Made by a program: the position numbers and the translations under genes. Below, piece after piece: positions 16,719 through 32,260 of a DNA stretch of 64,000 bases. The stretch is from an uncultured Eubacteriales bacterium (GTDB lineage Bacteria; Bacillota; Clostridia; Acetivibrionales; CAVYEU01): positions 15,885 to 79,884 of the forward strand of contig CAVYEU010000022.1 in assembly GCA_963767415.1 (NCBI GenBank), in the 5' to 3' direction. Under the pieces are notes generated by a model. That model saw only the letters and a list, made by a program, of their open reading frames with translations, did not search any database and was not told where the DNA came from. Numbering within the stretch: the first letter of the stretch is position 1; each line of letters begins with the position of its first letter.

Positions 16719-19700
16719 ATGATATACGCAGAACAGATGGGGCAATGGATTAAAATAAACTTTAAAGCAGACACTGCCACCTTTAAAACAATTGTTACAA
16801 TTTTAAAAACTATTAACGGTAAATTTTTTAATCCAGATAAAAAATTTTGGAGTATTCCTTACTCAAAAAAGGATGAGTTTGAATCCAAATTTTCAAAATT
16901 CCTTATAATTTGGGCAGACGGACGAAATACCAAAGGTAAAAAGGATTGGGGTGTGCCTTGTGACTCCACAATAATTCCTTATGGCTTTAAGGTAAAACCC
17001 TTTGCACACCAGATAGAAGGATTTAATGTAATGGTATCTCAAAAAGCCCTGATTCTTGCAGATGAAATGGGTGCAGGAAAATGCTTAGACAAGCATTCCT
17101 ACGCTCAAGTTAATGATGAAGCTATGACGATGGAAGAATTATGGGAAAAGTATGCAGACACATCTACACTTACCTACGATGATGAAGGAGGAGAATGGGC
17201 TGATTCTAAAGAAAAGCTTATCGTACCATCATTAAATGGTGAAGGTAAACTTGTTAAACAAGAAATAGTAAGGCTTTATAGACAAAGAGTATCGGAAAAT
17301 TTAACAAAAGTATCAACTGTTGGGGGTTATTACGCAACAATAACAAAAAGGCATCAGCTTTTAAGTGAAAATGGCTGGTCTAATAAAATCGGTAATTTTA
17401 TTTCAGGTGTTTCTTATCTACCAGAAGGGAATAGAAAACTTGATAGTGATATATTGGAGCTAATAGCTTGGTCACTGACAGAAGGTTATGAGAGAAGACA
17501 AAATGCAATGATAATCACCCAAAAAGATAAGGAACTATTAAGATCACTAGCTGCTTTAGTTTGTAAAATTGATTTTAAGTATAATCTGGATATCAGCCCG
17601 CAAGTCAAATATTCAAAAAATGGATGTTTCCAGCTATATATATGTGGAAAGAAATTCAAGAACTTTCTTGTTGATATGGGGTATGCATGGAATACAAATT
17701 CTGCTCACAGAAGTATTCCAACAATAATTCAACAATTAGACAATGAACATTTAGCTTTATTTTTAAGACATGTTTTTGATGCTGAAGGATCAGTAGGCAA
17801 GAATTTAATGGAGATAACTTTAGCTTCAGAAAAAATGCTAAATCAAATTGCTTATTTACTTTTACGTTTTGGTATACACATGACAATCCACAATAAAGAG
17901 TCTATGGCATATAACGGTAAAAGAATTAAAAGAACTTATTTTAGGGGAAATATCTGCGGAGATGAAGCAAGAAAATTTAAAGAACTTATCGGATTCAATA
18001 CGGGATATAAATCAAGATTACTTGATGAATTATGTGATAGACCTTCAAATCCTAATATTGATGTTATACCTACATTAAAGCTATTACAGGAATTTAAAGA
18101 AGTAACAAATTTACCTATGCTGCATTTTTGCACTCATGCAATTTATATCAAGTCACAGAATTGTTCTCGTGATTCTGCTAAAAAGGTTATAGCTTTATTA
18201 GATAAAATTATTAGTGGAGAAACCCTTGAAAAATATAAGTTGTTAGCACGTTCAAAGTGGACAGATGCTACTTTAGAAGCATATGAAAAACTCGATATTA
18301 ATTACGTTATTGAAGCCAGAAACAAAATTCAAAATATGCTTGATAAAGATTTATTGTATTTAAAAGTAACTAAAGTTGAAGATATTTGGTATGATGATTA
18401 TGTTTATGACTTAGAAGTAAAGGACACTCATAATTTTGTAGGCGGTGTTGGTGGACTTATGCTGCATAACACTGTTCAAGCCCTTACCGCTATGGAAGCA
18501 AGATATTTATTGGGTCAGATAAAAAGGGTATTAATTATTACAAAAGCATCTCTTACTTACAACTGGCAAAATGAGGCAGCCAAGTTTACCAGACAAAAAG
18601 CTGTTGTTTTAGGTGGCTCAAAAAATGAACGAATGAAACAGTATGCTGATTTATACTATGACAAAAAAACCTTATTTTTTATTACAAGTTATGAAACTTA
18701 CAGAAATGATTACTTCCATTTCCAACAGTTCTATTGGAGTGCCATGATCCTGGACGAATCACAAAAAGTAAAGGGTTGGAACACTAAAATCGGTGAATTG
18801 ATTCATGAAATAGATGCCGATTATAAATATGCTTTAACAGGAACACCTATAATAAATACACCATTAGAAGCATATAACATTTTAAAATGGTTAGGTGTCG
18901 AAAAACGCGACTGGTGGACTTTTAGAAACAGATATGCTGTTTTGGGTGGTTTTAATGACAAGGAAATTGTCGGGTATAAGAATTTGCCTGAGTTACAACA
19001 AAAAATTCAGAATGTTTTACTTAGAAGATTAAAAGAGGATGTTTTAGACCTTCCTCCTAAAATTAGGCAAGTTGTACTTTTAGAAATGACAGCTTCACAA
19101 AAGAAAGTATATAAAAATGTTAAAGCTGGCATCATTAATGAAACTTTAGGAGCTATGCAAACTGGAGAGATACATCCTTTAGTTGAACTTATCAGGCTTA
19201 AGCAATGTACATCATCAATCAGGATTTTTGAAGGGATTGAGGTTTCAGATGATGAGCATTCAGTTAAAATAAATACACTTAAAGAATATTTAGAAGATAT
19301 TTGCATTAGCAATAAAGCTGTAGTTTTTACACAATTTAAAACTGTAGTAAAAATACTTTTAAAGGATAAAGAAATTTTAAAGTATAACCCGGCTGTAATA
19401 ACTGGTGATGTTCATTCAGCTGCCAGAGCTGGAGAAAATACCTCAGATCGACAAAGGCAAGTTGACAAATTCCAAAACGATTCCTCTTGCCGCCTTTTTA
19501 TCGGAACACTCGGTTCTTGCAGGGAAGGATTGACTTTAACTGAAGGTAATTATGTATTTTTCTTAGATGAAGAATGGGCTGAAGCTTACAACCAGCAGGG
19601 GGAAGATCGATGCATGAGAATCGGGCAACAAAAGACAGTTAATATCTATAGATTTAGGTGCAAGGATACTATTGATGAGATTATAGGGCAGGTATTACTT

Positions 19701-19799
19701 GGAAAAGAAGAAATGTTTGATAATATTATTGATATGAAAAGTAGCGGAGCGACACCTAAAATGAAAACATTATTGCAGGATATTTTGAAAGTCGGATAA
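16719..19799 (+). CDS. SNF2-family helicase interrupted by an intein
   Basis: The track ORF starts at 16626, but GGGGGGAATAGG followed by ATG at 16719 is the likely start. HQ..G, DEMGAGK[intein]TVQALTAME, LDESQKVK (DExx box) and QGEDRCMRIGQ (motif VI) give the SNF2 motif series. Confidence 0.85.
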   Translation: MIYAEQMGQWIKINFKADTATFKTIVTILKTINGKFFNPDKKFWSIPYSKKDEFESKFSKFLIIWADGRNTKGKKDWGVPCDSTIIPYGFKVKPFAHQIEGFNVMVSQKALILADEMGAGKCLDKHSYAQVNDEAMTMEELWEKYADTSTLTYDDEGGEWADSKEKLIVPSLNGEGKLVKQEIVRLYRQRVSENLTKVSTVGGYYATITKRHQLLSENGWSNKIGNFISGVSYLPEGNRKLDSDILELIAWSLTEGYERRQNAMIITQKDKELLRSLAALVCKIDFKYNLDISPQVKYSKNGCFQLYICGKKFKNFLVDMGYAWNTNSAHRSIPTIIQQLDNEHLALFLRHVFDAEGSVGKNLMEITLASEKMLNQIAYLLLRFGIHMTIHNKESMAYNGKRIKRTYFRGNICGDEARKFKELIGFNTGYKSRLLDELCDRPSNPNIDVIPTLKLLQEFKEVTNLPMLHFCTHAIYIKSQNCSRDSAKKVIALLDKIISGETLEKYKLLARSKWTDATLEAYEKLDINYVIEARNKIQNMLDKDLLYLKVTKVEDIWYDDYVYDLEVKDTHNFVGGVGGLMLHNTVQALTAMEARYLLGQIKRVLIITKASLTYNWQNEAAKFTRQKAVVLGGSKNERMKQYADLYYDKKTLFFITSYETYRNDYFHFQQFYWSAMILDESQKVKGWNTKIGELIHEIDADYKYALTGTPIINTPLEAYNILKWLGVEKRDWWTFRNRYAVLGGFNDKEIVGYKNLPELQQKIQNVLLRRLKEDVLDLPPKIRQVVLLEMTASQKKVYKNVKAGIINETLGAMQTGEIHPLVELIRLKQCTSSIRIFEGIEVSDDEHSVKINTLKEYLEDICISNKAVVFTQFKTVVKILLKDKEILKYNPAVITGDVHSAARAGENTSDRQRQVDKFQNDSSCRLFIGTLGSCREGLTLTEGNYVFFLDEEWAEAYNQQGEDRCMRIGQQKTVNIYRFRCKDTIDEIIGQVLLGKEEMFDNIIDMKSSGATPKMKTLLQDILKVG
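17082..18470 (+). mobile_element. intein with LAGLIDADG homing-endonuclease domain, inserted in the helicase P-loop
   Basis: 463 codons starting with Cys directly after GAGK and ending LMLHN immediately before Thr (the +1 nucleophile). Block-B-like TKRH, two LAGLIDADG-like blocks (LIAWSLTEGYE and FLRHVFDAEGSV), and block F/G VYDLEVKDTHNFV...LHN. Excision restores DEMGAGKTVQAL. Confidence 0.8.
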
Positions 19800-19816: not shown

Positions 19817-19846
19817 CCTAAATAATCTGTTCTCAATATCGTATAT
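19817..19846 (+). promoter_or_regulatory. phage promoter motif CCTAAA-N16-TCGTATAT (copy 1)
   Basis: CCTAAA at 19817-19822 and TCGTATAT at 19839-19846, with an exact 16 nt spacer. Lies in the intergenic region after the helicase and before the 19895 gene. Confidence 0.55.
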
Positions 19847-19894
19847 CAGTCTGTGAAAGGCTGATTTTTTTATTATGAGAGGAGAATACAAACA

Positions 19895-20164
19895 ATGATA
19901 GTACGGTTAATAATTAAAAATGAAGGTGGCAAAGCTATTTCTTTAAATGATGGATTCCCTTATTCAGTAGGTGATTTTATTATTCTAAAAGAATTTCCAA
20001 ATGTTGCTTTTAAAGTTGTTGAAAGAAGGATTGAAACTGGAAGCAATAATAAAAATATTTATGTTGAGGAAATAATATTTCCATCCATAACTGTAAATTT
20101 AATTTGCGAAAAAGGCTATTTTATCCCTACAAACATTGATTTTGAGCCAAATGAAGAAAATTAA
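19895..20164 (+). CDS. hypothetical protein
   Basis: 89 aa ORF with a GAGAGGAG RBS. No motif recognised. Confidence 0.5.
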   Translation: MIVRLIIKNEGGKAISLNDGFPYSVGDFIILKEFPNVAFKVVERRIETGSNNKNIYVEEIIFPSITVNLICEKGYFIPTNIDFEPNEEN

Positions 20165-20184
20165 TAAAAAAATTTTATGGTCTC

Positions 20185-20214
20185 CCTAAAAAACAAACCA
20201 CCAACATCGTATAT
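20185..20214 (+). promoter_or_regulatory. phage promoter motif CCTAAA-N16-TCGTATAT (copy 2)
   Basis: CCTAAA at 20185-20190 and TCGTATAT at 20207-20214, with a 16 nt spacer. Lies upstream of the replication gene block. Confidence 0.55.
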
Positions 20215-20253
20215 ATACAACGCAAAACAAAAATACGAAGGCGGTGGTTTTTT

Positions 20254-20706
20254 ATGGGTATTCTTAGTGATATTATTTCTGGTTCGGTATTTGACCAAAC
20301 AGAGTTAAGTGAAAAGTTGGTATCCGACTATTATGAAACAAACGAACTCAAGAAACAAGCGGAAAAACAACTTAAGGAATGGAAGGTAGTAATAATCAAT
20401 GCTTTAGAGAAATTAGGAACTAACGCAAAAAACATTGGTAAGTTTCAAGTGCTAAAACAAATAAAAGACACATCTAAACTTGATGAAAAACTTCTTTTAG
20501 AATTGCTTCTCTTAAAATCTAAAGAAGATGAAACTTTCAAAAAAGGTATTAAACAAACTGTTGATGAGGAAGGTGTAAAGCAGCTTATTTCAGATGGGTT
20601 TTTATCAATGGATGAAGTTAAACAAGAATGCTACATCCATGAGCAGCAAATAGCACTTGTAATTAAAAATACATCAAAAAGCAAAGGAGGTGATGAAAGT
20701 GGCTAA
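20254..20706 (+). CDS. hypothetical coiled-coil protein
   Basis: 150 aa with a GGCGGTGG RBS and a predicted helical, charged sequence. No specific motif recognised. Confidence 0.5.
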   Translation: MGILSDIISGSVFDQTELSEKLVSDYYETNELKKQAEKQLKEWKVVIINALEKLGTNAKNIGKFQVLKQIKDTSKLDEKLLLELLLLKSKEDETFKKGIKQTVDEEGVKQLISDGFLSMDEVKQECYIHEQQIALVIKNTSKSKGGDESG

Positions 20707-20920
20707 AACCAAAGAAATTGTAGTATCTGTTGGAATAACTAAGGCATTAAAAAAAGAGTATGAATTTATTAGATTGGATGTTGGAATTACAAAGACTATT
20801 GAATCAAAAGAAAACCATGAAATGGAGTACGAAAAAGCATGGAATGAGGTTCAGGATCAACTTTTGTTAAAGTTAGGCGAGCTTCATGGCAATGATGCAG
20901 TAAATAAGCTTTTACCTTAG
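20690..20920 (+). CDS. hypothetical protein
   Basis: 76 aa track ORF. AAAGGAGG directly precedes 20690, so GTG at 20699 is the better-spaced start. Confidence 0.45.
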   Translation: MMKVAKTKEIVVSVGITKALKKEYEFIRLDVGITKTIESKENHEMEYEKAWNEVQDQLLLKLGELHGNDAVNKLLP

Positions 20921-20952
20921 ACAAACAATAATACAAGGAGGCAGTTTAAATT

Positions 20953-21969
20953 ATGAAAAAAGACATGGAAAAATCAAATGCAGTTAGGATTGTTAGTGAT
21001 GATGAAAATTATATTATGAATGAAAGTCCAAATAATGGGGTCACTATTATCCCAACATGCTTTATACGGTGTATGCTTGTTTCAGAAGGGGCAAAAAAAG
21101 TAATGAGTGCTATTTTAACTTATTGCTACGGAGGAAAAAAACAGGCATACCCAAGTCATCATTGTATAGGAGCAATTACAGGTCTTGAAAGAAATGCAAT
21201 AAGCAAATATTCAAAGGAACTTAAAGATAAAAAGTTTATTGCTTGGGAAAAGCGTATTAACTCATCTAATATTTATTATCTTCTTCCTGTTAGTGAAAGT
21301 CCGTATATTATAGCTTCAGATATTATTTGGGCAGTAATATCAGATTTACAGGAACTTGGGGTTTATGCACCCAAAAAAATCAAAGTAGCTGTTTCACTGT
21401 TCAAAAAGAATCATATTGAAGAATTTATAAAAGAGGTAAGTTTAAATATGGATTGGTCTTACCATCTTTCAAAAATCAAATCAGTAATTATTTATTATAT
21501 CAAGAAAGGAGATAAAGCTATGTGCCCATTTGAAGAATATACTTCTGAAGAATATGCTTTTGAAGAGACACAAGAAAATGGATTGAATTTTAAATTTAAC
21601 GAATGGATGGCTTATTTTAAACGCCAATATAATCTTACGAACAATAATCCGTTAAATGCATATAAATTCACTCTGGAGGACAGAAAGCATATGAAAACTT
21701 TGTTGACATATATGTCTCCAAATATTCTTTTCAAAGCAATACCCTTATTTCTAAAAGCGGATGAATATAGAGGAGAGCTTCGATGTCTTCGTATTATGCA
21801 GCAGCAAACAGTAATGCAAATTTTAGCAGAAACGGTCAAAGGTAATTTTGAGTCAGTTGATGATTATTTAAACCTCTGCAGAAATAAATCTTTACGTCGA
21901 TCTCCTGCAGCTTTTGAGCCAGATGAAAGTACGCTGCTGGATGAAATAAGAATGAAGAAGGGGGTCTAA
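20953..21969 (+). CDS. putative replication initiator / replisome organizer (N-terminal winged-HTH)
   Basis: 338 aa. SAILTYCYGGKKQAYPSHHCIGAITGLERNAISKYSKELKDKKFIAWEKR looks like the HTH of phage replication organizers. It lies immediately upstream of the DnaC-like loader and DnaB. Confidence 0.5.
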   Translation: MKKDMEKSNAVRIVSDDENYIMNESPNNGVTIIPTCFIRCMLVSEGAKKVMSAILTYCYGGKKQAYPSHHCIGAITGLERNAISKYSKELKDKKFIAWEKRINSSNIYYLLPVSESPYIIASDIIWAVISDLQELGVYAPKKIKVAVSLFKKNHIEEFIKEVSLNMDWSYHLSKIKSVIIYYIKKGDKAMCPFEEYTSEEYAFEETQENGLNFKFNEWMAYFKRQYNLTNNNPLNAYKFTLEDRKHMKTLLTYMSPNILFKAIPLFLKADEYRGELRCLRIMQQQTVMQILAETVKGNFESVDDYLNLCRNKSLRRSPAAFEPDESTLLDEIRMKKGV

Positions 21970-21971
21970 TA

Positions 21972-22688
21972 ATGACAGCATTGTTTGATAAATGTGAAAA
22001 CTGTTTTATAAATTACAGATGTCCAATAAGTAACGGCAAAATTCCAAAACCTGAGACCTTAACCTGTCATCATATTGATCGAATTGAAAAAGCTATGGAA
22101 TCATCCAATATTCCAGCTAAATACATGTATAAGACACTTAATGATTTTATTATCGATTGGGAAAATGCTCATTGTTATGAGATCATTAAAAAGTGCATTG
22201 ATGGTTTGGGGTATGAAGATTCTAAAGAAGTATTCAATTTAATTATAACTGGAAGAGAATACGGCACAGGCAAAACATTTTCAGGTTGTGTGATTTTAAA
22301 TGAATTTATAATTAAAAAGTATAAGCTCTTCGATCTCGAAAATCCAATAGCTATGTATGTAGATTTCTCAAGCCTAATGAAACGGATCAAAGATAATATC
22401 GACTTAAAAGACCCTAATCTTCATACATTCATTGAAAACGTAAAGACCTGTCCATTATTAGTAATTGATGATGCTGGTTCAACAAGACTTTCTGATTATG
22501 TTAGAGATGAAGCATTTGTTATCTTTAATGAGCGTTATGCAAATGAACTAAGTACAATTTTAATCTCAAATTTCAGTATTGATTATCTTAAAGATGATTC
22601 CGCTTTGACAGAACGCATAATTTCAAGGCTTTCTGAAAACGGCAATATTTTATCATTTCAAGGAAAAGACAGGAGGAAAACAATATGA
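21972..22688 (+). CDS. DnaC/IstB-like helicase loader ATPase
   Basis: 238 aa. Walker A is GREYGTGKTF and Walker B is LLVIDDAGS. An N-terminal Cys cluster is present (CENC...C...C). Coupled to the downstream DnaB by a 4 nt overlap. Confidence 0.75.
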   Translation: MTALFDKCENCFINYRCPISNGKIPKPETLTCHHIDRIEKAMESSNIPAKYMYKTLNDFIIDWENAHCYEIIKKCIDGLGYEDSKEVFNLIITGREYGTGKTFSGCVILNEFIIKKYKLFDLENPIAMYVDFSSLMKRIKDNIDLKDPNLHTFIENVKTCPLLVIDDAGSTRLSDYVRDEAFVIFNERYANELSTILISNFSIDYLKDDSALTERIISRLSENGNILSFQGKDRRKTI

Positions 22689-23929
22689 TAGAAGAATTAC
22701 AATTTTTAAATGCCATATTAACCAGCAAAGATGCTACACTACTAAAAAAATACGGTATACAACAAGAACATTTTATTATTTTTAGGGATGTATATGATTT
22801 TATTGTCGAATATAAATCAAAATTTAGAGAATTGCCATCTCTCGACTTAATTTTATCCAAGTTTAAAGATTTTGATAAAGTCGAAATTGATAATCTTGAA
22901 TATGTTTCAGCTCAATTGAAAAAACAAAGATTGGGAAATGTAATAAAGCCTTTTATAGAAAAGGGTTCGGATATATTTAATGAACAAGGGTTTGAAGATG
23001 CTCTGAATTACTTCATGTATGAAAGTAAAAATTTAAAAAAAGGTTTTGAATCTGTAAAAAAATATCCGAGCTGGGTTAAAGATGCAGATATAAGGCTTGA
23101 CAAATTTATAGAAAATTCAAAATTATCTCTTAATGAAAAAGGTATATCAACAGGTTTTCCTGCTCTGGATAAAATTTTCAACGGAGGAATTAAGAAAAAA
23201 GATTTAGTTGTAATATTTGCCCGTTTGAAAAACGGTAAATCTTGGGTTGGCGAAAGAATGGTACTTGAAGCTTTTATTAAAAATCATTCTCCTATCCTAT
23301 TTTCCCTTGAAATGGATGATATGAGTACGGGTTATAGGCTTGATACTCTATATCGTAATTTTAGCAATAAAGGGCTTATCTGCGGAGATTCAGAAAATGT
23401 GTCTGTTGAGGGATACAACGACTATATTAACAATTTGAAAGTTCAAAATCGTAAACTTTGGATTTTCACTAACCAGCAAAATGGCAAAAGAAAATGGACA
23501 GTTAAAGATATTCGCAGTATCGCTGAAGAATTAGAATGTGGAATGATAGCAATAGATCAGTTATCTCTTCTCGGTTGGGACAGAGATTTCAAGTCTCCGA
23601 CTCTAGCATTTCATCATATTTGTGATGAACTTAAAACTCTTGCAATGGATTTGGATATACCTGTTATTTTACTTGCACAGGCTGGAAGACAAGTTCTTGC
23701 AAAGCTTCGGGAAGATAAGAATGCAATGCCAGAAAATGAAGATTTGCAATGGGCAGATGCAATAATGCAGTACGCTGACAAAGGAATTTCTGTCAGAAAG
23801 CAAGATGACATTATAAAAATGAAAGTTACTGCAAATCGTGGTGGTACTGAAGGACAGAATCTTTACTTCAAGTGGTATTTCGACAAAGGTATTATCGAAG
23901 ATTACGACCCAAGTACAGCACGTATGTAA
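22685..23929 (+). CDS. dnaB: replicative DNA helicase (DnaB family)
   Basis: 414 aa. GFPALDKIFNGGIKKKDLVVIFARLKNGKS (Walker A region), FSLEMD, IAIDQLSLL and LLAQAGRQ follow the DnaB motif order. Confidence 0.8.
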   Translation: MIEELQFLNAILTSKDATLLKKYGIQQEHFIIFRDVYDFIVEYKSKFRELPSLDLILSKFKDFDKVEIDNLEYVSAQLKKQRLGNVIKPFIEKGSDIFNEQGFEDALNYFMYESKNLKKGFESVKKYPSWVKDADIRLDKFIENSKLSLNEKGISTGFPALDKIFNGGIKKKDLVVIFARLKNGKSWVGERMVLEAFIKNHSPILFSLEMDDMSTGYRLDTLYRNFSNKGLICGDSENVSVEGYNDYINNLKVQNRKLWIFTNQQNGKRKWTVKDIRSIAEELECGMIAIDQLSLLGWDRDFKSPTLAFHHICDELKTLAMDLDIPVILLAQAGRQVLAKLREDKNAMPENEDLQWADAIMQYADKGISVRKQDDIIKMKVTANRGGTEGQNLYFKWYFDKGIIEDYDPSTARM

Positions 23930-23941
23930 AGGAGATAAAAA

Positions 23942-24115
23942 ATGACAGCAGCATTTAGAGTTATTTATACAACAGATTCTACAACCTTAATTAACCATCC
24001 AATGGTTCTGAATGTAGAGACCGCTTTGGAAGCCATTAACAAGGTTTTAGCAGATGATAATGTCGATATTAATGAACTTATAGGTATTAATGTTCTTAAA
24101 TATGAAATTGAGTAA
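23942..24115 (+). CDS. small hypothetical protein (57 aa)
   Basis: Own translation: MTAAFRVIYTTDSTTLINHPMVLNVETALEAINKVLADDNVDINELIGINVLKYEIE. AAAGGAG RBS. Confidence 0.4.
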   Translation: MTAAFRVIYTTDSTTLINHPMVLNVETALEAINKVLADDNVDINELIGINVLKYEIE

Positions 24116-24164
24116 AAAATAATCTGTTAAATGCTGCTTACATTCCATAATATAACAAAGTATC

Positions 24165-24218
24165 AAAAAACAAGTTACAGTTTGTTGAAAAAACAAGCTA
24201 CAGTCTGTTGAAAAAACA
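24165..24218 (+). repeat. tandem 23 bp direct repeat (2.3 copies) AAAAAACAAGYTACAGTYTGTTG
   Basis: Units at 24165-24187 and 24188-24210, with a partial unit at 24211-24218. Each junction creates a TTGAAA hexamer. Confidence 0.8.
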
Positions 24219-24237
24219 TTTTTCGAGGTTATATAAT
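24208..24237 (+). promoter_or_regulatory. housekeeping-sigma-type promoter (TTGAAA-N18-TATAAT) upstream of primase
   Basis: TTGAAA at 24208-24213 and TATAAT at 24232-24237, about 65 nt upstream of the primase ATG. Confidence 0.5.
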
Positions 24238-24301
24238 TGGAAGTTGTTATTAATTGATATATTTGGAAACATTTAGCTAAAAAAGGAGGGGATTAAAATA
24301 T

Positions 24302-25291
24302 ATGAATGACCTAGAAATGCTTAATATTAACATGGAACAGTTGATTATTGAATTGGAAAAAGATTTTAAACATTGTATGACAAATTATTATGCGTTTAAG
24401 AAAATAAAAATGCTTGATAATAATGTCATGTGCTGTTGTCCTTTTCATACGGAAGATCGACCTTCCTTTGGTATTCAAAAATCTTATCCATATAGGTTTA
24501 ATTGTTTTTCATGCAAAGAAAAAGGGGATATAATTACTTTAGTGTCATATTGCCTCAAAATAAATACTGACGAGGCTTTAAAATGGCTTAAAAGATCATA
24601 CAGATTATTCTATTCAAAATTTCAACCTATAGACATAAGTAAATTATTTAGAGATGATTCGGTAAATAAACCTATCCTGAATGAAGATGTTTTGAAAGCG
24701 TATGCTGTAAAACCTCATCATCCCTGGATTTTGAAAAGAAGATTTCATCCAGAAGTTTTAGACAAATTTCAAATCGGATATGACAATAAATTGAAAGCCA
24801 TTACTATTCCTATTTGGGATAGGTGGGGTAATCTTCGCTATATCAAAAAACGTTTCATTAATCCCTCAAGTAATGGCAGCAAGTATTTGAATCAAAAAGA
24901 TGTTTATAAAAGAGATATTGTTTATCCTATTCATTTTATAAAGCAAGCCAGGATTAGCGATGTAATTTTGTGTGAGGGTGAACTTAATGCACTATCTTTA
25001 TATCAAGCTGGAATGGCTGCAGTTGCAATAGGGAGTTCAATGATAACGAATGAACAAGTTCAGGTATTACTAAAATGTGGCATTAAAAGGGTGACAATAT
25101 TTTTTGATAATGATGAGGCAGGTTACAAAGGAATTGATATTGCTGAAGAAAGATTATTTCCCAATTTTATGGTTAATCACATAGTATTTCCTAAACAATT
25201 TAATGATGCAAATGATATGTTAAGAGCCAATTTACTTAGTAAAGACAAGCTTTCCATAGAAGTTTGCAAACAATTTAAACTAACAATTTAA
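24302..25291 (+). CDS. dnaG: DNA primase (DnaG-type zinc finger + TOPRIM)
   Basis: 329 aa. CHC2 zinc finger CCCPFHTEDRPSF...CFSCKEKGD. TOPRIM motifs CEGELNA and FFDNDEAG. Confidence 0.8.
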   Translation: MNDLEMLNINMEQLIIELEKDFKHCMTNYYAFKKIKMLDNNVMCCCPFHTEDRPSFGIQKSYPYRFNCFSCKEKGDIITLVSYCLKINTDEALKWLKRSYRLFYSKFQPIDISKLFRDDSVNKPILNEDVLKAYAVKPHHPWILKRRFHPEVLDKFQIGYDNKLKAITIPIWDRWGNLRYIKKRFINPSSNGSKYLNQKDVYKRDIVYPIHFIKQARISDVILCEGELNALSLYQAGMAAVAIGSSMITNEQVQVLLKCGIKRVTIFFDNDEAGYKGIDIAEERLFPNFMVNHIVFPKQFNDANDMLRANLLSKDKLSIEVCKQFKLTI

Positions 25292-25307
25292 AAAAATATT
25301 TTATCTG

Positions 25308-25337
25308 CCTAAAGAAATGAACTTCCATTTCGTATAT
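25308..25337 (+). promoter_or_regulatory. phage promoter motif CCTAAA-N16-TCGTATAT (copy 3), upstream of the sigma factor gene
   Basis: CCTAAA at 25308-25313 and TCGTATAT at 25330-25337, with a 16 nt spacer. Confidence 0.55.
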
Positions 25338-25389
25338 GTGCAATATGAGAGATAAATACCAAAAAAATACTAATTTGGGAGGGCAAATA

Positions 25390-25971
25390 ATGAAAACCGA
25401 CAGTAAAAGTAGTTTTGGAAAGATGTTGCAGAAAACTGCACTAGAAGGAAATGTCGAAGAGACAATTTCTTTACTAAGACCTATACTAATTGGAAAATAT
25501 GGTGCTCTTTATCACAAAAGGTATAAACATGCGATTGGTATGGAGGTTGAGGATATTGTATCAATTATGGAAGTTAAAGTTTGGGAAAGCATTTCTTCTT
25601 ATGATGCTTCAAAAGCTAGTTTCTATACGTATATATCCAATATTTTGGAACATCTGTTTGTAGATTTGCAAAAAAAGGCATCTAATAAGGGTAATCAAAT
25701 GATGGCTAATGCAAGTTCTATAACTTCTGAATACTGCAAAGATGATCAATGGGTTAGTTTTCATGAAACAATTGGCAAATATGATCTCGATTTATACAAG
25801 GTAGAATTAGAACTTTTTATAAATTTGGGTCTTACTCCCAAAGAAAGAACAGTAGTTACTTTAAGGCAGAAAGGATATGAGACATCGAAGATAGCAAATA
25901 TTATGGGGCTTTCAGAAGGGAGGGTATCGCAGTTATTATCAAGTGCAAGGAAAAAATGGCTAAATGCGTAA
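25390..25971 (+). CDS. phage-encoded sigma-70-family sigma factor
   Basis: The track ORF starts at 25336, inside the promoter motif. GGGAGGG followed by ATG at 25390 is the likely start. Region-2-like FYTYISNILEHLFVDLQKK. Region 4 HTH LTPKERTVVTLRQKGYETSKIANIMGLSEGRVSQLLSSARKK. Confidence 0.75.
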   Translation: MKTDSKSSFGKMLQKTALEGNVEETISLLRPILIGKYGALYHKRYKHAIGMEVEDIVSIMEVKVWESISSYDASKASFYTYISNILEHLFVDLQKKASNKGNQMMANASSITSEYCKDDQWVSFHETIGKYDLDLYKVELELFINLGLTPKERTVVTLRQKGYETSKIANIMGLSEGRVSQLLSSARKKWLNA

Positions 25972-26003
25972 AAAATAATAAAAAGAGGAAGGTTGTGGAT
26001 TAT

Positions 26004-26630
26004 ATGATTCAAAAGGGAATAGATGCAATTAAATCTGCTGTTGAAAATTCCAATAATGGAGTACCTTATTTAAAATTTAAAGCAAATGAGGCAAAGGTTA
26101 TCAGATTTTTACAACCAGTTGAAGAATTAATATCCGTTTATGAGCATGTGGAAGAATTTAAAATTGGTTGGAGAACTATTACATGTATAAGGAAGGAAAA
26201 TGGATGTCCCCTTTGCAAAGCAGCATTTAACCCTATATTTCATACTTATATACCTTTAATTGATAAAAGTGACCAAAATAAAGTAAAAATATTTAAAGTA
26301 GGTGTAAAAGTAGGTGATCAATTTATGGGACTAATTAAGGAGTATGGGGATATTACTAAAAGAGATTTCAAAATCTTAAAGACAGGTGAAAAATTAAAGA
26401 CTCAATATCATTTTTTTGCAAAAGACCCATCACCAGAAGATTGGAGTAAAGTTGAAATACCAGATATAGAAAAGCTCGTTCAGCCAAAAAGCATTTCTGA
26501 AATTGAATCAATTTTGGCTGGAGGCGTTACTGCAGGAAATAATGATGCATATGAAAACTCTGATGATGGATTTAAGCCTGTTGGTAGCAACGCTCCTCCA
26601 AATGGAGGTAAAAGCGGGTATCCATTTTAG
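26004..26630 (+). CDS. putative ssDNA-binding protein, T4 gp32-like zinc motif
   Basis: The likely start is ATG 26004 after GAGGAAGG. H-x12-C-x6-C-x2-C (HVEEFKIGWRTITCIRKENGCPLC) resembles the gp32 His/Cys3 zinc site. An acidic C-terminal tail (NDAYENSDDGF) ends in YPF, similar to the SSB ...DIPF tip. Confidence 0.45.
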   Translation: MIQKGIDAIKSAVENSNNGVPYLKFKANEAKVIRFLQPVEELISVYEHVEEFKIGWRTITCIRKENGCPLCKAAFNPIFHTYIPLIDKSDQNKVKIFKVGVKVGDQFMGLIKEYGDITKRDFKILKTGEKLKTQYHFFAKDPSPEDWSKVEIPDIEKLVQPKSISEIESILAGGVTAGNNDAYENSDDGFKPVGSNAPPNGGKSGYPF

Positions 26631-26640
26631 TACTATGAAA

Positions 26641-26685
26641 AAAGGCTTACAAAAACTTCTGTCCCTTTTTGTAAGCCTTTTTATT
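26641..26685 (+). terminator. rho-independent terminator
   Basis: AAAGGCTTACAAAAA (26641-26655) pairs with TTTTTGTAAGCCTTT (26666-26680) and is followed by a T-rich tail. Lies between the SSB-like gene and polA. Confidence 0.6.
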
Positions 26686-26715
26686 AACTCAAATATTCTG
26701 TAAGGAGTGAATAAC

Positions 26716-29700
26716 TTGAAAAATTATATTGAACTTCAGAATTTAAGAAAAGAGCTTAAAGTAACTCGTAAGGCTGTTGCAGAAGCAATAGGACTTAAAA
26801 ATGCAGTTAAATTATCCAAGTTTGAAGCTGGAGAAGAAGACAAATTGACTGAAGAACAAATTAACGCTTATGAATTATTTTTAGAAAGTATTCCTAATAA
26901 AAATAGGGATTCTAAATCTTCTACTGTAAAAACAGAATTAAATGTACCAACTCTTGAAGAATCTAAGGAAAAGGCTAAAAAAGATAAAGAAAAAAGAACA
27001 AGTCCTCCGTTAAAGAAGCTTATTACAAAGAATGAGGAACTCAAACAGATATCCGATTCTTTAGTCTTACCGAGAAATTTTATAACGGTAGATAATATAG
27101 ACTTATTGAATCAGTGTGTACAGGAATTATCTCAAGAAGAAGTTCGAATATTAGATACTGAAACTTATGGCTCTGACTCAAAGCAAGCCAAGAATCCGAA
27201 TCTGGCAAAGTTTTGCGGATTATCTTTGTGGCTTCCAACAGTAGATAAAGGTTATTGGATTCCTATTGCTTCAGAATATATGAAGTGTTTAGAACCTAGT
27301 ATTGTAAGAAATGCATTAAAACCTGTGTTAAATAATGATTCCAACAGATTCGGTAATTCATGCTTTGTTCAACGAAAAATACGAAAAAACGGTATAGTTA
27401 CAATAGAGAAAATAGAAGTACCTTATAAATTAGTAACTCATAACTATAAATTTGATGCTCATGTTATGAGACATTTTGGAATAGACCTACCTCATGCATG
27501 GTTTGATACTCTAATATGCTCATGGCTTTTAGATGAAAATGATGATCATAATTTAAAGGCACTCTGGAATAAATATTGCTGCAAGGATATTAGCGAAAGT
27601 GCTGATAAATTCAATAAACTATTTGGCAGTATAACCATGAATAAGGTTTATCCGAATATTGCAACTAATTATTCTATAAAAGATGTAAAAATGACTTATG
27701 AATTAATGCTATTTCAGAAGGAACAGCTTGATAATAACAAATTATGTGTAAAAATAGCAGATTTGTTTTGGAATAGAGAAATGCCAGTATTATCTATAGC
27801 TTATGCTGCTGAAAAACAAGGGCTAAGAGTTGATGTAGAATATTTAAGAAATATTGTTTCTCCCAAATTACACAAGGAATGTTCTGAAATATATGATAAA
27901 ATTCTTGAAATTTATGTTCGGGAAGGTCTGAAAGTACCTGAGAATAAAATTGCTGCAGCAATGGAAGAACACAGGTTACGTCAGATATTTAAAAAAGATG
28001 GAGTACCTTATGCTGTTTCTAAAAATGTTGGCTTCAATTTAAACAGTAATCCTCAAAAACAGGAACTTGTATGGGATATGTTAAAGCTTACTCCTCCGAA
28101 ACAACCAAGCAGAAAGAAAGAGGATATCCGAAGTCTAAATTCAAAAAAAGTGTTAAAGAAAATTAGAAAGCAACACTCAATAATTGAATTATTGATGAAA
28201 TATAACACTGCGAATAAGCTTGCCAGTGCTTTTGCTGATGCCTTGCCTAAATCCGTTATTTTATGCTCTGATGGTGTATATAGGGTTTTCCCAAATATAA
28301 ACTCCGCAGGAACAAAAACAGGCAGACAAAGTTGTACTAATCCTAATCTACAACAAATGCCTGCCAGAGTTGGAGAATTAATAAGAAATGCTTTTATTGC
28401 AGAAGAGAAAAGGTTATTACTGGCTGTGGATTATAATCAACAGGAGCTGAGAGTACTTGCCGATATTTCTGAAGATGAAGTATTAACTAAAGCCTTTTTT
28501 GACAAAAAAGATATTCACTCTCTCACAGCTTCAACCGTTTTATCACAGCAGTTAAGTTCTTTTAAAAAAACATTGGAACAATCAATTGAAAATTTAAGCA
28601 AAAGTAATACTGAAATTGCTGAAATATCTAAATTGGTTGCTGGAGTAGAAAAGGAATTATATTTAATTTCAGAGGATGAAATCAACAACCGGGTTAAGGT
28701 CTTGAAGGCAATGCCAAATGAACAACTTATCTCTGAAATTCAAAATAGACTTGATAATTTAGGATACCATTTTACTTACGGTCAAAGCTATGAAATATTT
28801 GAAATGATCCGCAATAAATTAACCCGAATAGTAGTATCCGAAAAAAGTGACAGCAAAGAAGTTGAAAAAACTGTTGGTATACATCCTGTTGAAGAAAGTA
28901 TTAATAACTTTCCATATGCTGACCCAAAATATATAAATTCACTTTATAAAATGGCATCCTCCCTCCCTGATGAAACAATGCTTGAATTATCACATTTTTT
29001 TGAGAAGCAAAGAAAGAACGCTAAAATACTTAATTTCGGTATTGTTTATGGTATGAGTAAATATGGTTTGGCAGATGCCCTTGAAATTGATACCGATACT
29101 GCACAATCATTTATTACAGGGTATTTGTCAGGATACAAAGGAATTATGAGAACTATGTACTTAACACATGAAGAAATGAAGAAAACTACTTTTGTGGAGA
29201 ATAAAGCTGGACGTAAACGCCGTTTCTATAATGAATTTGATAAGATGTATAATGATAAAAGCATGAAATGGCTTCTTGGCTCTTGTCAAAGGCAATCTTT
29301 CAATTTCAAGGTTCAATCTTATTCTGCTGATATGACAAAACAGGCTATGATTGATGTTCAACCGATTTTAGAACGGATTGGCGGTATTATTTTAATGGCT
29401 ATCCACGATGAAATATTATTTTCTGTACCAGCTACTATAACTCAAAATGATATTAAGGAATTAAGAGAAGCTATGCAAAATGCTATACCTCTTTGTGTTC
29501 CTATGACCTCTGATGCTGAAATAGGGCGAAAATGGGGTGAATGTAAGGCTGTATCTGAAATTGCAGATTTTTTAAGCTTGATTGAAGAACTCGATGATAG
29601 TGAAAGAAATGATAATACTACAGTTCTTGATGAAGAATCTGGCTTAGATACAAGCTATTTTGATACTGAAGGGGTCAAAGAAGATGAATTAAATAATGCC

Positions 29701-30348
29701 AATGAAAATGCTATTATGCTTAAAGCAGACAAGGAGGATCAAGTCAAAATGGGAATAGAAATGCTTCAAAACGAAATATTGACTATAAAAAATAAAAATA
29801 TTAGAGATGTCATAACGGAAGTACTTCAAAATGCTCCCACCTATTTTTGGGAGATACCAGCATCCAGCACTGGCAAACATCATCCCGAATATGCTTTAAA
29901 AGAGAATGGCCTCGTAAATCATATTCGAGCAGGAATAATGCTAATTGAAGATACTTTTAAAAATAATACAATTATGAATGTATTCTTTCCCGAAGGTCAC
30001 TCGGAGCTTATAAAGGATTGTATTAGAGGTGCTTATTTGATTCATGATTGTTGCAAAAGTGGTTTAGATAATGTTCCTGTTCCTCATACATGTATTGAGC
30101 ATCCCTTATTAGTCAAGGAATTAACTAAAAAAATAAAGAAATCAACCATAATGAAATTGTCAGAACAAGAAAGGTCTTGTCTGTCATATATGATGGGTGC
30201 AGTCGAGAAACATATGGGGGAATGGATTACAGATTGCAAAGGAAATAAAATTCTCGATACTCCTAAGAATGGGTTAGAAAAATTTATTCATATGGTAGAT
30301 TACTATGCTTCCCGAAAATTCCTTGAAGTAAATTTTGAAGTAAAATAA
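26716..30348 (+). CDS. polA: family A DNA polymerase with N-terminal HTH, 3'-5' exonuclease, fingers insertion and C-terminal HD domain
   Basis: TTG at 26716 is 8 nt after AAGGAG; the track uses GTG at 26707. Exo motifs are ILDTET, NYKFDAHVM and YSIKDVKMTY. Pol motif A is VDYNQQELRVLA, motif B is RKNAKILNFGIVYG and motif C is AIHDEILF. The C-terminal PASSTGKHHPEY...HDCCK resembles phage HD phosphohydrolase domains. Confidence 0.85.
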   Translation: MKNYIELQNLRKELKVTRKAVAEAIGLKNAVKLSKFEAGEEDKLTEEQINAYELFLESIPNKNRDSKSSTVKTELNVPTLEESKEKAKKDKEKRTSPPLKKLITKNEELKQISDSLVLPRNFITVDNIDLLNQCVQELSQEEVRILDTETYGSDSKQAKNPNLAKFCGLSLWLPTVDKGYWIPIASEYMKCLEPSIVRNALKPVLNNDSNRFGNSCFVQRKIRKNGIVTIEKIEVPYKLVTHNYKFDAHVMRHFGIDLPHAWFDTLICSWLLDENDDHNLKALWNKYCCKDISESADKFNKLFGSITMNKVYPNIATNYSIKDVKMTYELMLFQKEQLDNNKLCVKIADLFWNREMPVLSIAYAAEKQGLRVDVEYLRNIVSPKLHKECSEIYDKILEIYVREGLKVPENKIAAAMEEHRLRQIFKKDGVPYAVSKNVGFNLNSNPQKQELVWDMLKLTPPKQPSRKKEDIRSLNSKKVLKKIRKQHSIIELLMKYNTANKLASAFADALPKSVILCSDGVYRVFPNINSAGTKTGRQSCTNPNLQQMPARVGELIRNAFIAEEKRLLLAVDYNQQELRVLADISEDEVLTKAFFDKKDIHSLTASTVLSQQLSSFKKTLEQSIENLSKSNTEIAEISKLVAGVEKELYLISEDEINNRVKVLKAMPNEQLISEIQNRLDNLGYHFTYGQSYEIFEMIRNKLTRIVVSEKSDSKEVEKTVGIHPVEESINNFPYADPKYINSLYKMASSLPDETMLELSHFFEKQRKNAKILNFGIVYGMSKYGLADALEIDTDTAQSFITGYLSGYKGIMRTMYLTHEEMKKTTFVENKAGRKRRFYNEFDKMYNDKSMKWLLGSCQRQSFNFKVQSYSADMTKQAMIDVQPILERIGGIILMAIHDEILFSVPATITQNDIKELREAMQNAIPLCVPMTSDAEIGRKWGECKAVSEIADFLSLIEELDDSERNDNTTVLDEESGLDTSYFDTEGVKEDELNNANENAIMLKADKEDQVKMGIEMLQNEILTIKNKNIRDVITEVLQNAPTYFWEIPASSTGKHHPEYALKENGLVNHIRAGIMLIEDTFKNNTIMNVFFPEGHSELIKDCIRGAYLIHDCCKSGLDNVPVPHTCIEHPLLVKELTKKIKKSTIMKLSEQERSCLSYMMGAVEKHMGEWITDCKGNKILDTPKNGLEKFIHMVDYYASRKFLEVNFEVK

Positions 30349-30360
30349 ATTTTTTGCTGA

Positions 30361-30390
30361 CCTAAAAAAGAGGACTTTTATATCGTATAT
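30361..30390 (+). promoter_or_regulatory. phage promoter motif CCTAAA-N16-TCGTATAT (copy 4)
   Basis: CCTAAA at 30361-30366 and TCGTATAT at 30383-30390, with a 16 nt spacer. Lies upstream of the methylase. Confidence 0.55.
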
Positions 30391-30417
30391 AAGATCGAAA
30401 GGAGATGTGTCGGTCTT

Positions 30418-31278
30418 ATGAGTATATACGTTAAAAGTCCTCTTAATTATATTGGCGGTAAATTTAAGTTGTTACCTCAGATAATACCTTTGTTTCCTGA
30501 CAGAATTAATAATTTTATAGATTTATTTTGCGGAGGAGCAAATATTGGAATAAATGCTAATGCAGATACTATCATTTGTAATGATATTCAAAAAGAAGTG
30601 ATAGGATTTTGCAACGTTTGTAAAAAACAGTCCAGCAGCGAATTATTAAGAGTATTAAAAGATACAATTGAGTTATACAAATTATCTAAAGTAAATAAGG
30701 AAGGTTATATTAATCTGAGAAATGATTATAATTCAGGAAACAGAGCTTGGAATACCTTCTATGCTCTTGTTTCACACTCTTTTAATAATCAGATTAGTTT
30801 CAATAAAAAACATGAATTTACTGAATCTTCTGGTCGCAATAGAAGTTGGTTCAACCCTAATCTTGAAGCCAATTTTATAAAATTTATAGACCATCTCAAA
30901 ACCAAAAATATTGATTTTATTTCTTATGATTTTAGGAATATAAAATTTACTCACTTGTCTGAGGAAGATTTTCTATATGTTGATCCTCCATACTTAATAG
31001 CTAGTGCTAATTACAATAGAAATGGCAGTTGGAGCAATAAAGATGAAATTGACCTCCTAAATATTTTGGATGATTTCAATTCAAAAAAAGTTCGGTTTGC
31101 ACTCTCTAATGTTTTAAGACATAAGGGAAAATCCAATAATCTGCTCAAGGATTGGAGCAGCAAATACAATGTCCATCGGATAGAGAATGACTACAGAAAT
31201 TGCATTTACTGTACTAAAGATAAGTCTATAGGTTCAACTGATGAAGTATTAATAACCAATTATTTGAAAGGAGCTTAA
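30418..31278 (+). CDS. dam: DNA adenine methyltransferase (Dam/D12 class)
   Basis: 286 aa. N-terminal SPLNYIGGKFKLLPQIIPLFP, FCGGANIG (SAM-binding) and the catalytic DPPY in FLYVDPPYLIA. Confidence 0.85.
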   Translation: MSIYVKSPLNYIGGKFKLLPQIIPLFPDRINNFIDLFCGGANIGINANADTIICNDIQKEVIGFCNVCKKQSSSELLRVLKDTIELYKLSKVNKEGYINLRNDYNSGNRAWNTFYALVSHSFNNQISFNKKHEFTESSGRNRSWFNPNLEANFIKFIDHLKTKNIDFISYDFRNIKFTHLSEEDFLYVDPPYLIASANYNRNGSWSNKDEIDLLNILDDFNSKKVRFALSNVLRHKGKSNNLLKDWSSKYNVHRIENDYRNCIYCTKDKSIGSTDEVLITNYLKGA

Positions 31279-31280
31279 TA

Positions 31281-32195
31281 ATGGCTAATTTAAAAGGTTT
31301 AACAACTGCAATGAAAGAACTTGATAAAAAAGAAAAAGAACAGTCATTTACCGAAAAGTTTTTAAAGGAATATGACAGAATTATCGAAGCACTGAATACT
31401 AAAATCAATAACGATCAGGCTATCAGCAAACGTAAGGTTTGGAAGCCGTCTCATATTTCTAAATGTGAGATAAATCTTTATTATTACTTTCTTGATAAAC
31501 CAGCAAATTTTAACTCTGTAAAAGCAAGAACATGGAGAGCTTTTGGTTTCGGCACAGCCCATCATCGTTGGAATCAAGAAGAAATATTGGCTAAAGTAAG
31601 AGAAGTTACAGATTCTAAAATTGAGCTGCTTGATCTTAACAGGCTTGAGCTTCCAAATGGAACAAAAATAATTGAAAGGAAAGACCCTCTGGAACAAAAA
31701 CTGCAAAAGGCTCTATTGGAATTAAATTTATCTGAGGAATTAGTAAATACAGCTGTAAGTAAATTTAACGCTGAAAATATAATCGGAATTAGAGACACTG
31801 AATGGAAGTTTTTTAATGAAAAATACAATGTTTCGGGTATGATTGACGGTGCCATTTCTTTTGAAACCAAAAATATTATTTGGGAATACAAAACCATAAA
31901 ACCTGACGATTACAAGTTTCTTGTTGAAGTTCATAAAAAGTATTTAGAACAAGGTGCGATGTATTATCTCTGTCTTGGGATTCCATATATTTTATTTCAG
32001 TATGAAGATAAAGGAAGTCATGAATTTAAAGCCTTTGAATATGAATATAAACCAGTTCATTCAGAGTGGGTTATCGCTAAAATGGAGCGTATTAATAAAT
32101 GTATTGAACACAGGGTATTACCACCAAAACCTGTAGATGATTTTAATTGTAAGTTTTGCGAATACAAAGAGATATGTATCAAAAGAGAAAAATAA
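31281..32195 (+). CDS. PD-(D/E)xK exonuclease, Cas4/RecB-like with C-terminal Cys cluster
   Basis: 304 aa. MIDGAI ... WEYKT (D...ExK), an N-terminal Cys, and a C-terminal CKFCEYKEIC (C-x2-C-x5-C) typical of Cas4-type iron-sulfur nucleases. Confidence 0.6.
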   Translation: MANLKGLTTAMKELDKKEKEQSFTEKFLKEYDRIIEALNTKINNDQAISKRKVWKPSHISKCEINLYYYFLDKPANFNSVKARTWRAFGFGTAHHRWNQEEILAKVREVTDSKIELLDLNRLELPNGTKIIERKDPLEQKLQKALLELNLSEELVNTAVSKFNAENIIGIRDTEWKFFNEKYNVSGMIDGAISFETKNIIWEYKTIKPDDYKFLVEVHKKYLEQGAMYYLCLGIPYILFQYEDKGSHEFKAFEYEYKPVHSEWVIAKMERINKCIEHRVLPPKPVDDFNCKFCEYKEICIKREK

Positions 32196-32230
32196 ACATA
32201 TGTACTTTTCAAAAATTATTTTTTTTGTGA

Positions 32231-32260
32231 GCTAAAAAATTAACTTTCTATATCGTATAT
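32231..32260 (+). promoter_or_regulatory. phage promoter motif GCTAAA-N16-TCGTATAT (copy 5)
   Basis: GCTAAA at 32231-32236 and TCGTATAT at 32253-32260, with a 16 nt spacer. Lies upstream of the nuclease/recombination block. Confidence 0.55.

Follow-up and report, generated by a model that had tools for sequence, protein, structure and literature searches.

The stretch of DNA analysed here, a 64-kb window (the window throughout; 30% GC) of the 93-kb contig CAVYEU010000022.1 from an uncultured Eubacteriales bacterium, carries phage genes together with seven copies of a bipartite intergenic motif and the gene of a small sigma factor, and the relationship between that sigma factor and those seven promoter-like sites is our subject. 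A terminase large subunit gene (terL), a portal gene, a replication module, the sigma factor gene and the motif are all found on the one contig, as would be looked for in a phage with its own sigma factor and promoters. Gene functions in the window were assigned with Pfam, PHROGs and tblastn, and the score of each site in a position weight matrix (PWM) is given with its location.

6679-6707, minus strand: promoter-like CTTAAA-N16-CGTATAT, PWM score 33.6; ahead of the terS/terL/portal block, which consists of a 55-aa open reading frame (ORF; 6470-6637), putative terS (5806-6462), terL (3099-4790) and the portal gene (829-2172)
16667-16695, plus strand: promoter-like CTTAAA-N16-CGTATAT, PWM score 50.5; 23 nt before the start codon (ATG 16719, ribosome-binding site GGGGGG) of an SNF2 helicase gene
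19818-19846, plus strand: promoter-like CTAAAT-N16-CGTATAT, PWM score 49.3; before an 89-aa gene (19895-20164)
20186-20214, plus strand: promoter-like CTAAAA-N16-CGTATAT, PWM score 52.2; before a 150-aa gene, a 75-aa gene, a replication initiator, a DnaC-like loader, DnaB and, further on, the primase
25309-25337, plus strand: promoter-like CTAAAG-N16-CGTATAT, PWM score 45.4; 52 nt before the sigma factor gene, in front of a unit of sigma, an SSB-like gene and then, past a strong hairpin, PolA
25390-25971, plus strand: phage sigma factor, 193 aa, with sigma-2 and sigma-4 domains and without sigma-3
30362-30390, plus strand: promoter-like CTAAAA-N16-CGTATAT, PWM score 54.8; before a Dam-type methyltransferase gene (30418) and a Cas4-like exonuclease gene (31281)
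32232-32260, plus strand: promoter-like CTAAAA-N16-CGTATAT, PWM score 49.7; before a resolvase/endonuclease gene (32287), in a block that runs through a RecA/UvsX-like gene (33903) and ends at 35416

With respect to the packaging block, the TerL protein is 48% identical to that of Brevibacillus phage Jenst (tblastn) and the portal gene product matches phrog_3753; the terS assignment has a weak N-terminal helix-turn-helix as its sole basis.

The pattern CTAAA-N16-TCGTATAT occurs exactly five times in the window, always on the plus strand (at 19818, 20186, 25309, 30362 and 32232), where 100 dinucleotide shuffles of the window lead one to expect 0.00 copies, and the five plus-strand (C/G)CTAAA-N16 sites of a preliminary description of this DNA are thereby borne out. 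The octamer TCGTATAT alone is present eight times (1.49 expected), its further copies lying at 6679-6686 (minus), 16688-16695 (plus) and 52482 (plus). In the sites at 6679 and 16667 it is preceded by CTTAAA and 15 nt. The former, on the minus strand ahead of the small ORF, terS and terL, had been described in just this form as a spacing variant; when the -35 is read as a hexamer, it falls in the same register as the others (CTTAAA versus CTAAAN), and all seven sites conform to CT(A/T)AAN-N16-CGTATAT, with variation confined to hexamer positions 3 and 6. The latter, of the same CTTAAA form, had been overlooked: all six sites of the preliminary description are present, and the count rises to seven. 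The octamer at 52482-52489 lies antisense within a response-regulator gene, has no -35 and is probably due to chance.

A PWM scan, which the preliminary description had called for on the whole phage and host genome, covered the window and gave only the seven sites above background. Their scores of 33.6-54.8 are inflated, as the matrix was trained on these same sites, and the informative part of the result is that no other position on either strand rises above the shuffled background (next best, 10.6; shuffled maximum, 7.4 +/- 2.8), so that there are no weak members of the class. All seven sites are intergenic in a window of which 13.7% is intergenic (P about 9e-7); a similar frequency inside coding DNA had been named beforehand as an outcome that would speak against promoters. 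At every site a start codon in the same orientation follows the -10 at a distance of 23-52 nt. An A-tract and then a T-tract (AAAAnAAtTTTTt) also precede the -35 by approximately 8-20 nt in all seven, giving the consensus AAAAnAAtTTTTt...CTaAAaAA...T..AtaTCGTATAT, in which the CGT(ATA) of the -10 is invariant and the -35 has the AA of extracytoplasmic function (ECF) promoters without a conserved C of their 'AAC'. Each site has two conserved blocks, asymmetric and without dyad or direct-repeat symmetry, on either side of a 16-nt spacer whose length is fixed and whose sequence is not conserved. Such a layout is the anatomy of a sigma-type promoter.

In terms of the genes behind them, the sites cover the replication/recombination module and the packaging operon. 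No site of this class precedes the primase or the genes at 11.5-16.5 kb. Because the genes served belong mainly to replication and recombination, with packaging in addition, 'middle plus late' describes the class better than 'late', which refines the earlier suggestion of middle or late promoters. The copy directly upstream of the sigma factor gene had likewise been recognized before.

The sigma factor itself was identified by the Pfam models Sigma70_r2 (27.5 bits, cutoff 24) and Sigma70_r4 (36.7 bits, cutoff 24.1). The sole NCBIfam model that it passes is TIGR02937 of the sigma70-ECF superfamily (56.9 versus a cutoff of 42.9); all ECF-specific NCBIfam models remain far below their cutoffs (for example NF058625, 33 versus 130, and TIGR02952, 32 versus 206), and the FliA/WhiG model TIGR02479 reaches 34.4 bits against a cutoff of 189.6, with a match limited to residues 147-189 in region 4. 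We prefer the start at 25390, with its ribosome-binding site GGGAGGG, to the 208-aa database call, because the longer protein would begin about 8 nt after the -10. An AlphaFold (AF2) model from a 54-sequence alignment (mean predicted local distance difference test score, pLDDT, 87.4) shows a pair of helical domains, connected through a disordered linker, and lacks sigma-3; confidence drops at residues ~111-135 and pLDDT is below 50 at 122-130. Foldseek places the integrative B. subtilis SigH model first among matches to this structure, and further matches include sigma-E, CnrH, WhiG, SigL, SigH(Mtb) and SigW. Similarly, a profile of the family run against Protein Data Bank sequences finds the sigma-H-like 3mzy first, over the full length (E = 5e-27), with FliA (8.5e-19), SigF, SigB and WhiG at lower ranks, followed by the ECF factors sigma-E (4e-11) and SigW (3e-10). 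Region 4.2 (GLSEGRVSQLLSSA), with its FliA-like SxxRVSQL, closely resembles the FliA sequence (GVSESRVSQLHSQ). The protein is of minimal ECF-like architecture and lies, by sequence, outside any named ECF group and outside the FliA family. No anti-sigma gene was recognized near the sigma gene; the gene that follows it was considered as a second sigma or anti-sigma factor and rejected, as it is SSB-like (phrog_14578, E = 7e-19) and conserved in all relatives.

An exhaustive HMMER search (E <= 1e-3) yielded 136 homologues of the sigma factor, the closest of them 48, 38 and 35% identical to it, all metagenomic singletons. Approximately 20 loci from metagenomes or prophages (30-49% GC) have homologues with 26-48% identity in the same primase-sigma-SSB-PolA slot, Moorella and Anaerovirgula being among the hosts of the prophages. 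The gene order of these relatives is (integrase)-replication initiator-DnaC-like-DnaB-(ThyX)-primase-sigma-SSB-like-PolA-Cas4-like exonuclease-resolvase-methylase-RecA. The SSB-like protein is 32-65% identical between loci and 43-65% identical to the copy in the window. In nearly all of the ~20 loci, (C/T)T(T/A)AAC-N16/17-CGTATA is repeated, on the sense strand only and often before the sigma gene. Even the distant homologues (26-31% identity) lie in the same DnaB-primase-sigma-SSB-PolA synteny with two to eight copies of the motif each, found before the replication initiator, SSB, PolA and other genes. The forms taken by the motif in individual loci are as follows.

L003, before the sigma gene: CTCTAAA-N16-TCGTATAT
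L002, before the sigma gene: CTGAAA-N15-TCGTATAT, with an A/T tract
L004 and L009, before the sigma gene: ATAAA-N16-ACGTATAT
L008: CTTAAC-N16-CGTATAGAT
L012: (G/C)TTAAC-N17-CGTATAA
L010 and L021: CTTAA(A/T)-N16/17-CGTATA
L007: TT(T/A)AAC-N16-CGTAATA
L005: CTTAAC-N17-CCTATATAT
L011 (Anaerovirgula multivorans prophage): CTTAACtttt-N12-(C)GGTAAGTATA

When the regions upstream of the sigma gene from the window, L002, L003 and L004/L009 are aligned, the invariant positions are the seven columns of CGTATAT and two A's of the -35, together with two scattered T's in the A/T tract, a GA about 12 nt past CGTATAT and the start codon; the remaining intergenic DNA is not conserved among these closest relatives. 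Between flank and start codon, then, no stretches other than CGTATAT and the two A's are invariant, and the autoregulation that had been raised as a possibility gains support from this and from the presence of the motif before the sigma gene in relatives. Nine loci with sigma homologues were taken from IMG/VR (36-49% GC, contigs up to ~200 kb) and scanned with NTNAAN-N16/17-CGTATA. The scan gave 37 matches on the gene-sense strand and none on the other, in eight of the nine loci, typically as (C/T)TTAAC-N16/17-CGTATA ahead of a ribosome-binding site and start codon. One locus, L014, has CTAAAC-N16-CGTATA in the same register and so bridges the CTAAAN of the window and the CTTAAC of the family. 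Some relatives carry a second, longer sigma factor (330-360 aa, regions 2 and 4) next to or near the small one (L004, 1121-2113; L008, 2170-3252; L009, 6418-7434); in the window this slot contains no such gene.

Among cultured phages, the searches found no close relative with this sigma factor. Among the 50,697 phage records of INPHARED, neither the window sigma factor nor its homologue P0005 has a tblastn match, and a third query, homologue P0006, has two weak matches only (E about 5e-4), to unannotated human faecal 'Bacteriophage sp.' records. The replication region has no nucleotide match there, and TerL is the only query from the window with relatives in that set (Brevibacillus phages Jenst and SecTim467 and Bacillus phage EZ-2018a, 47-49% identity). 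When the sigma factor was compared with 5.8 billion proteins through a word index, it recovered itself alone; scans of IMG/VR and JGI metagenomes with an alignment of the close relatives gave no match, and a scan of a genome collection gave a single contig of a Bacillota metagenome-assembled genome, the same element as L004.

The -10 differs among relatives in a manner that appears to follow the protein. All eight sigma factors from loci with a CGTA-type -10 have a (K/R/V)-D dyad in region 2, whereas P0011 (L005) and P0014 (L011), from phages without a CGTA -10 (CCTATATAT and GGTAAGTATA, respectively), lack it, which is suggestive of covariation between -10 specificity and sigma region 2.

On the basis of these comparisons, we consider it probable that the seven sites are promoters read by host core RNA polymerase in company with the 193-aa sigma factor that the phage encodes. 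The preliminary description had proposed as much, and the proposal is supported by homologues that sit in the same slot across unrelated contigs, with the same motif, in the sense orientation only, before homologous genes.

Known systems offer several partial parallels. The SigW, SigD and SigH promoter consensus sequences and the ECF region 4.2 motif used in what follows are general background and do not come from the papers cited. The B. subtilis sigma-W consensus is TGAAAC-N16-CGTATA. Like sigma-W and other ECF (group 4) factors, the phage sigma factor is a two-domain sigma-2/sigma-4 protein of ~190 aa without sigma-1.1 or sigma-3, and its putative promoters are bipartite, with an 'AA(C)' -35, a 'CGTA' -10, a spacer of 16 nt and little departure from the consensus. 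The relatives carry the full ECF-like TTAAC-N16/17-CGTATA, whose C is not conserved at the window sites, and even a -35-proximal T-tract, for example CTTAACtttt in L011. In region 4.2, the ECF motif is of the 'GTVKSR' type, and here the window sigma factor is unlike ECF proteins and resembles FliA. It differs from them also in that no ECF-specific model reaches its cutoff, the family profile ranks sigma-H-like proteins, FliA, SigF and SigB above the ECF factors, and the gene lies within a phage replication module with SSB next to it and no adjacent anti-sigma. A predicted promoter precedes the sigma gene in the window, L002, L003 and L004, and self-regulation together with an 'AAC ... CGT' promoter is the norm for small two-domain (ECF-type) sigma factors (PMC5758882). 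In its arrangement, the promoter appears no closer to that of sigma-28 than to the 'AAC-N16-CGTA' (sigma-W-like) layout of ECF factors.

The resemblance to sigma-28 that had been pointed out earlier holds for the -35 and for region 4.2 of the protein and fails for family membership. The SigD consensus is TAAA-N15-GCCGATAT; the window sites share the -35 (C)TAAA (TAAA at five of seven) and have the CG of the -10 17 nt from TAAA, and region 4.2 is most like that of FliA. Unlike the sigma-28/FliA/SigD factors, the window protein has no sigma-3 and stays below the TIGR02479 cutoff (34 versus 190), and the -10 is CGTATAT rather than CCGATAT, shifted by one base beyond the CG. Small sigma factors of the sigma-H kind provide the best profile match to a solved structure (3mzy) and the best Foldseek match (the SigH model), and in them too sigma-3 is short or absent; CTNAAN-N16-CGTATAT is unrelated to the promoter consensus of SigH, RNAGGAWWW-N11/12-RNNGAATWW. 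Phage-encoded sigma factors for middle and late genes are established in phiEco32 and 7-11 (PMC4331800) and in SPO1 (PMC9429907). As with phiEco32 gp36, its 7-11 counterpart and SPO1 gp28 and gp34, the sigma gene here stands among 'functional' genes, a short conserved motif is over-represented intergenically before replication and structural blocks, and host sigma-A promoters are presumed for the earliest genes. There is, on the other hand, no sequence relationship to these phages detectable by tblastn, the phiEco32 promoter is a single -10-like element (TAATGTATA) whereas the window promoter is bipartite, and no anti-sigma factor or inhibitor of host RNA polymerase was identified here.

Several points weigh against assigning the sites to the phage sigma factor. 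The evidence for that assignment is comparative throughout; the scan reaches 64 kb of the 93-kb contig; a strong hairpin precedes PolA, which lacks a site of its own; the covariation with region 2 sets eight sequences against two; and one of the IMG/VR loci, L020, has no match to NTNAAN-N16/17-CGTATA. In addition, CGTATA with a 16-nt spacer is the -10 layout of B. subtilis sigma-W, and a host ECF sigma factor could read some of the sites. The sites might indeed be promoters for a host factor of the sigma-W or sigma-28/SigD type, with the phage sigma serving some other purpose, as agreement with the sigma-W consensus in both -10 and spacer, and a TAAA-N17-CG in register with the SigD consensus, would allow. 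The CGTA -10 is moreover what gives sigma-W its selectivity in B. subtilis (PMC5758882). A host factor, however, sits poorly with a motif that accompanies the phage sigma gene over ~20 loci of 30-49% GC, prophages of Moorella and Anaerovirgula among them, that lies directly before that gene in the closest relatives, and whose -10 differs where region 2 of the phage sigma differs. The C of the ECF 'AAC' is also not conserved in the window, and the sigma-D -10, aligned on its CG, matches the window motif at 2/8 positions. Co-option of a host alternative sigma, which the preliminary description had left as an option, is accordingly disfavoured, and we regard it as unlikely.

It is more improbable still that the motif is no promoter at all and instead binds a phage regulator as its operator or is a duplicated repeat element. 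The sites are alike over ~50 nt, the A/T tract included, and a repeat search grouped three of the seven as a 59-nt repeat family (D9); yet an operator or repeat would hardly account for two asymmetric blocks about a non-conserved spacer of fixed length and lacking dyad or direct-repeat symmetry, for an orientation that strictly follows the downstream gene at a fixed distance from its start codon, or for the retention of both blocks at homologous positions in relatives whose flanks cannot be aligned. The sigma gene, furthermore, always accompanies the motif.

If the sites are promoters of the phage sigma factor, then by analogy with sigma-70-family factors its sigma-4 domain would read the -35 hexamer CT(A/T)AAN and its sigma-2 domain the -10 CGTATAT, 16 nt downstream, with the upstream A/T tract probably acting as an UP-like or curvature element. 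Expression could then proceed as a cascade that begins with host sigma-A polymerase. The DNA elements that bear on such a cascade, and the hairpins predicted by RNA folding, are listed below.

24208-24237, plus strand: sigma-A-type candidate promoter TTGAAA-N18-TATAAT (11/12 match), upstream of the primase
24160-24237: two 30-nt direct repeats, AAAAAACAAGyTACAGTyTGTTGAAAAAAC, overlapping the -35 of the sigma-A-like promoter before the primase
19845-19865, plus strand: terminator-like hairpin followed by T7; -9.6 kcal/mol, z = -3.1
20195-20250, plus strand: long hairpin followed by a U-run; -16.4 kcal/mol, z = -4.8
26639-26682, plus strand: strong hairpin of 17 predicted bp with A-/T-run flanks; -18.8 kcal/mol, z = -6.7
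30384-30420: smaller hairpin that includes a start codon

In the proposed sequence of events, host sigma-A polymerase would transcribe the early genes and the primase-sigma region, the latter from the operator-overlapped candidate at 24208-24237, and the sigma factor would probably first be made by read-through from this candidate promoter before the primase. It would then activate its own promoter at 25309-25337 in a positive feedback, along with six more promoters, and the units switched on would be the helicase, the initiator/DnaC/DnaB block, SSB/PolA, the methylase/exonuclease pair and the resolvase-to-RecA block and, on the other strand, the terS/terL/portal block. We predict that 25309-25337 is the autoregulatory promoter of a sigma/SSB/(PolA) unit; positive autoregulation is implied by a site before the sigma gene, as is usual for ECF sigma factors (PMC5758882).

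Each of the two direct repeats contains AACA...TGTT inverted arms, and the repeats may constitute a repressor operator governing the first expression of primase and sigma. Another plausible sigma-A-type promoter, for the genes at 11.5-16.5 kb, lies at 15077-15106. A scan of the window for sigma-70-type promoters gave 121 matches where 112 were expected in shuffles, which is uninformative at 30% GC; as the matches are not above chance, these sigma-A entry points are offered as candidates only. At the same place before the primase, L011 and L012 have a perfect TTGACA-N17-TATAAT, and in L011 (~8915-8945) the promoter before primase-sigma, TTGACA-atAGAACATACGTTCTg-TATAAT, has within it a GAAC-N4-GTTC (LexA/Cheo-like) box, suggesting that the sigma cascade of this Anaerovirgula multivorans prophage is under SOS control.

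With respect to the hairpins, the 5' arm of that at 19845-19865 overlaps the -10 of the promoter at 19818-19846 and the point where transcription from it is predicted to start, and that at 20195-20250 pairs the promoter spacer and -10 with the ribosome-binding region of the gene at 20254. The hairpins at 19845, 20195 and 30384 would be able to form only in read-through transcripts and would in this way insulate each unit. The hairpin at 26639-26682 lies between SSB and PolA, and no motif site is found from there to PolA. Scans of the window for Rfam families and tRNAs were empty.

Other features of the window are recorded here for completeness. Within the SNF2 helicase gene (16719-19799), the Pfam matches Intein_splicing and LAGLIDADG_3 point to an intein that carries a LAGLIDADG homing endonuclease. 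PolA (26716-30348) has 1210 aa, compared with an 804-aa single ORF in L011, and may carry an intein or other large insertion; in L005 and L010, the gene is split by an HNH or LAGLIDADG gene. At least four iterons (AAAWATATATTGAAYTAATTSAAAGGTAGTATTTGAACTA) at 12400-12660, in a largely ORF-free 1-kb stretch upstream of the early plus-strand genes, might mark an origin of replication or an array of operators. The gap between terL and the portal gene (2173-3098) is 926 nt of AT-rich DNA with no ORF of >= 60 aa on either strand and no Rfam or tRNA match. Beside the packaging block, the minus strand carries defence- or anti-defence-like genes for Schlafen/AlbA_2 (9675-11111), HSDR_N (9080-9628) and DUF2971 (7238-8083) proteins, spanning 7238-11111. 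An unusual cargo for a phage occupies 35561-61143 on the minus strand. It includes giant ankyrin-repeat proteins of 1402 and 1018 aa, a pair of GTPases, two proteins with response-regulator domains and a nonribosomal peptide synthetase-like condensation-adenylation-thiolation-reductase pair, and the sigma-type promoter described here precedes none of their genes. Within the ankyrin/GTPase region, 41815-42578 is duplicated at 49730-50492 and 47163-47740 at 51044-51630 (72-96% identity). Duplication that took in ~600 bp of upstream DNA and the N-terminus accounts for an apparent second 'motif' before the minus-strand genes ending at 47488 and 51366, which we reject as a promoter class on that account.

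A phage-encoded sigma factor with cognate promoters is a well-known kind of system; phage sigma cascades are textbook material, and nothing in them is overturned here. In the literature searched, we found no description of this motif, of the sigma lineage, of its fixed position in the replication module or of the promoter code. The fuller picture that we draw is tentative and, as a whole, falls a little short of evenly balanced. An uncharacterised lineage of minimal sigma-2/sigma-4 proteins with a FliA-like region 4.2 would be fixed between the primase and SSB genes of widespread Bacillota phages and prophages (contigs of ~90-200 kb). A self-amplifying promoter code, (C/T)T(T/A)AAC-N16-CGTATA, would govern the whole replication/recombination module together with, at the least, the packaging operon, and its -10 specificity would co-evolve with a K/R-D dyad in region 2. 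Temperate relatives may be triggered from a sigma-A promoter with a LexA-like box, and some of the window promoters would lie inside terminators or hairpins that sequester a ribosome-binding site, an arrangement that would spare only those transcripts that begin at the promoter.

If true, these sigma factor and promoter pairs would be ready-made orthogonal switches. Confirmation would provide a new pair with natural -10 variants (CGTATA, CGTAATA, CCTATATAT and GGTAAGTATA), which could be used to study how small sigma factors read the -10 and as orthogonal expression parts for Bacillota, and it would mean that the transcription programme of an uncultured phage lineage had been read directly from sequence.

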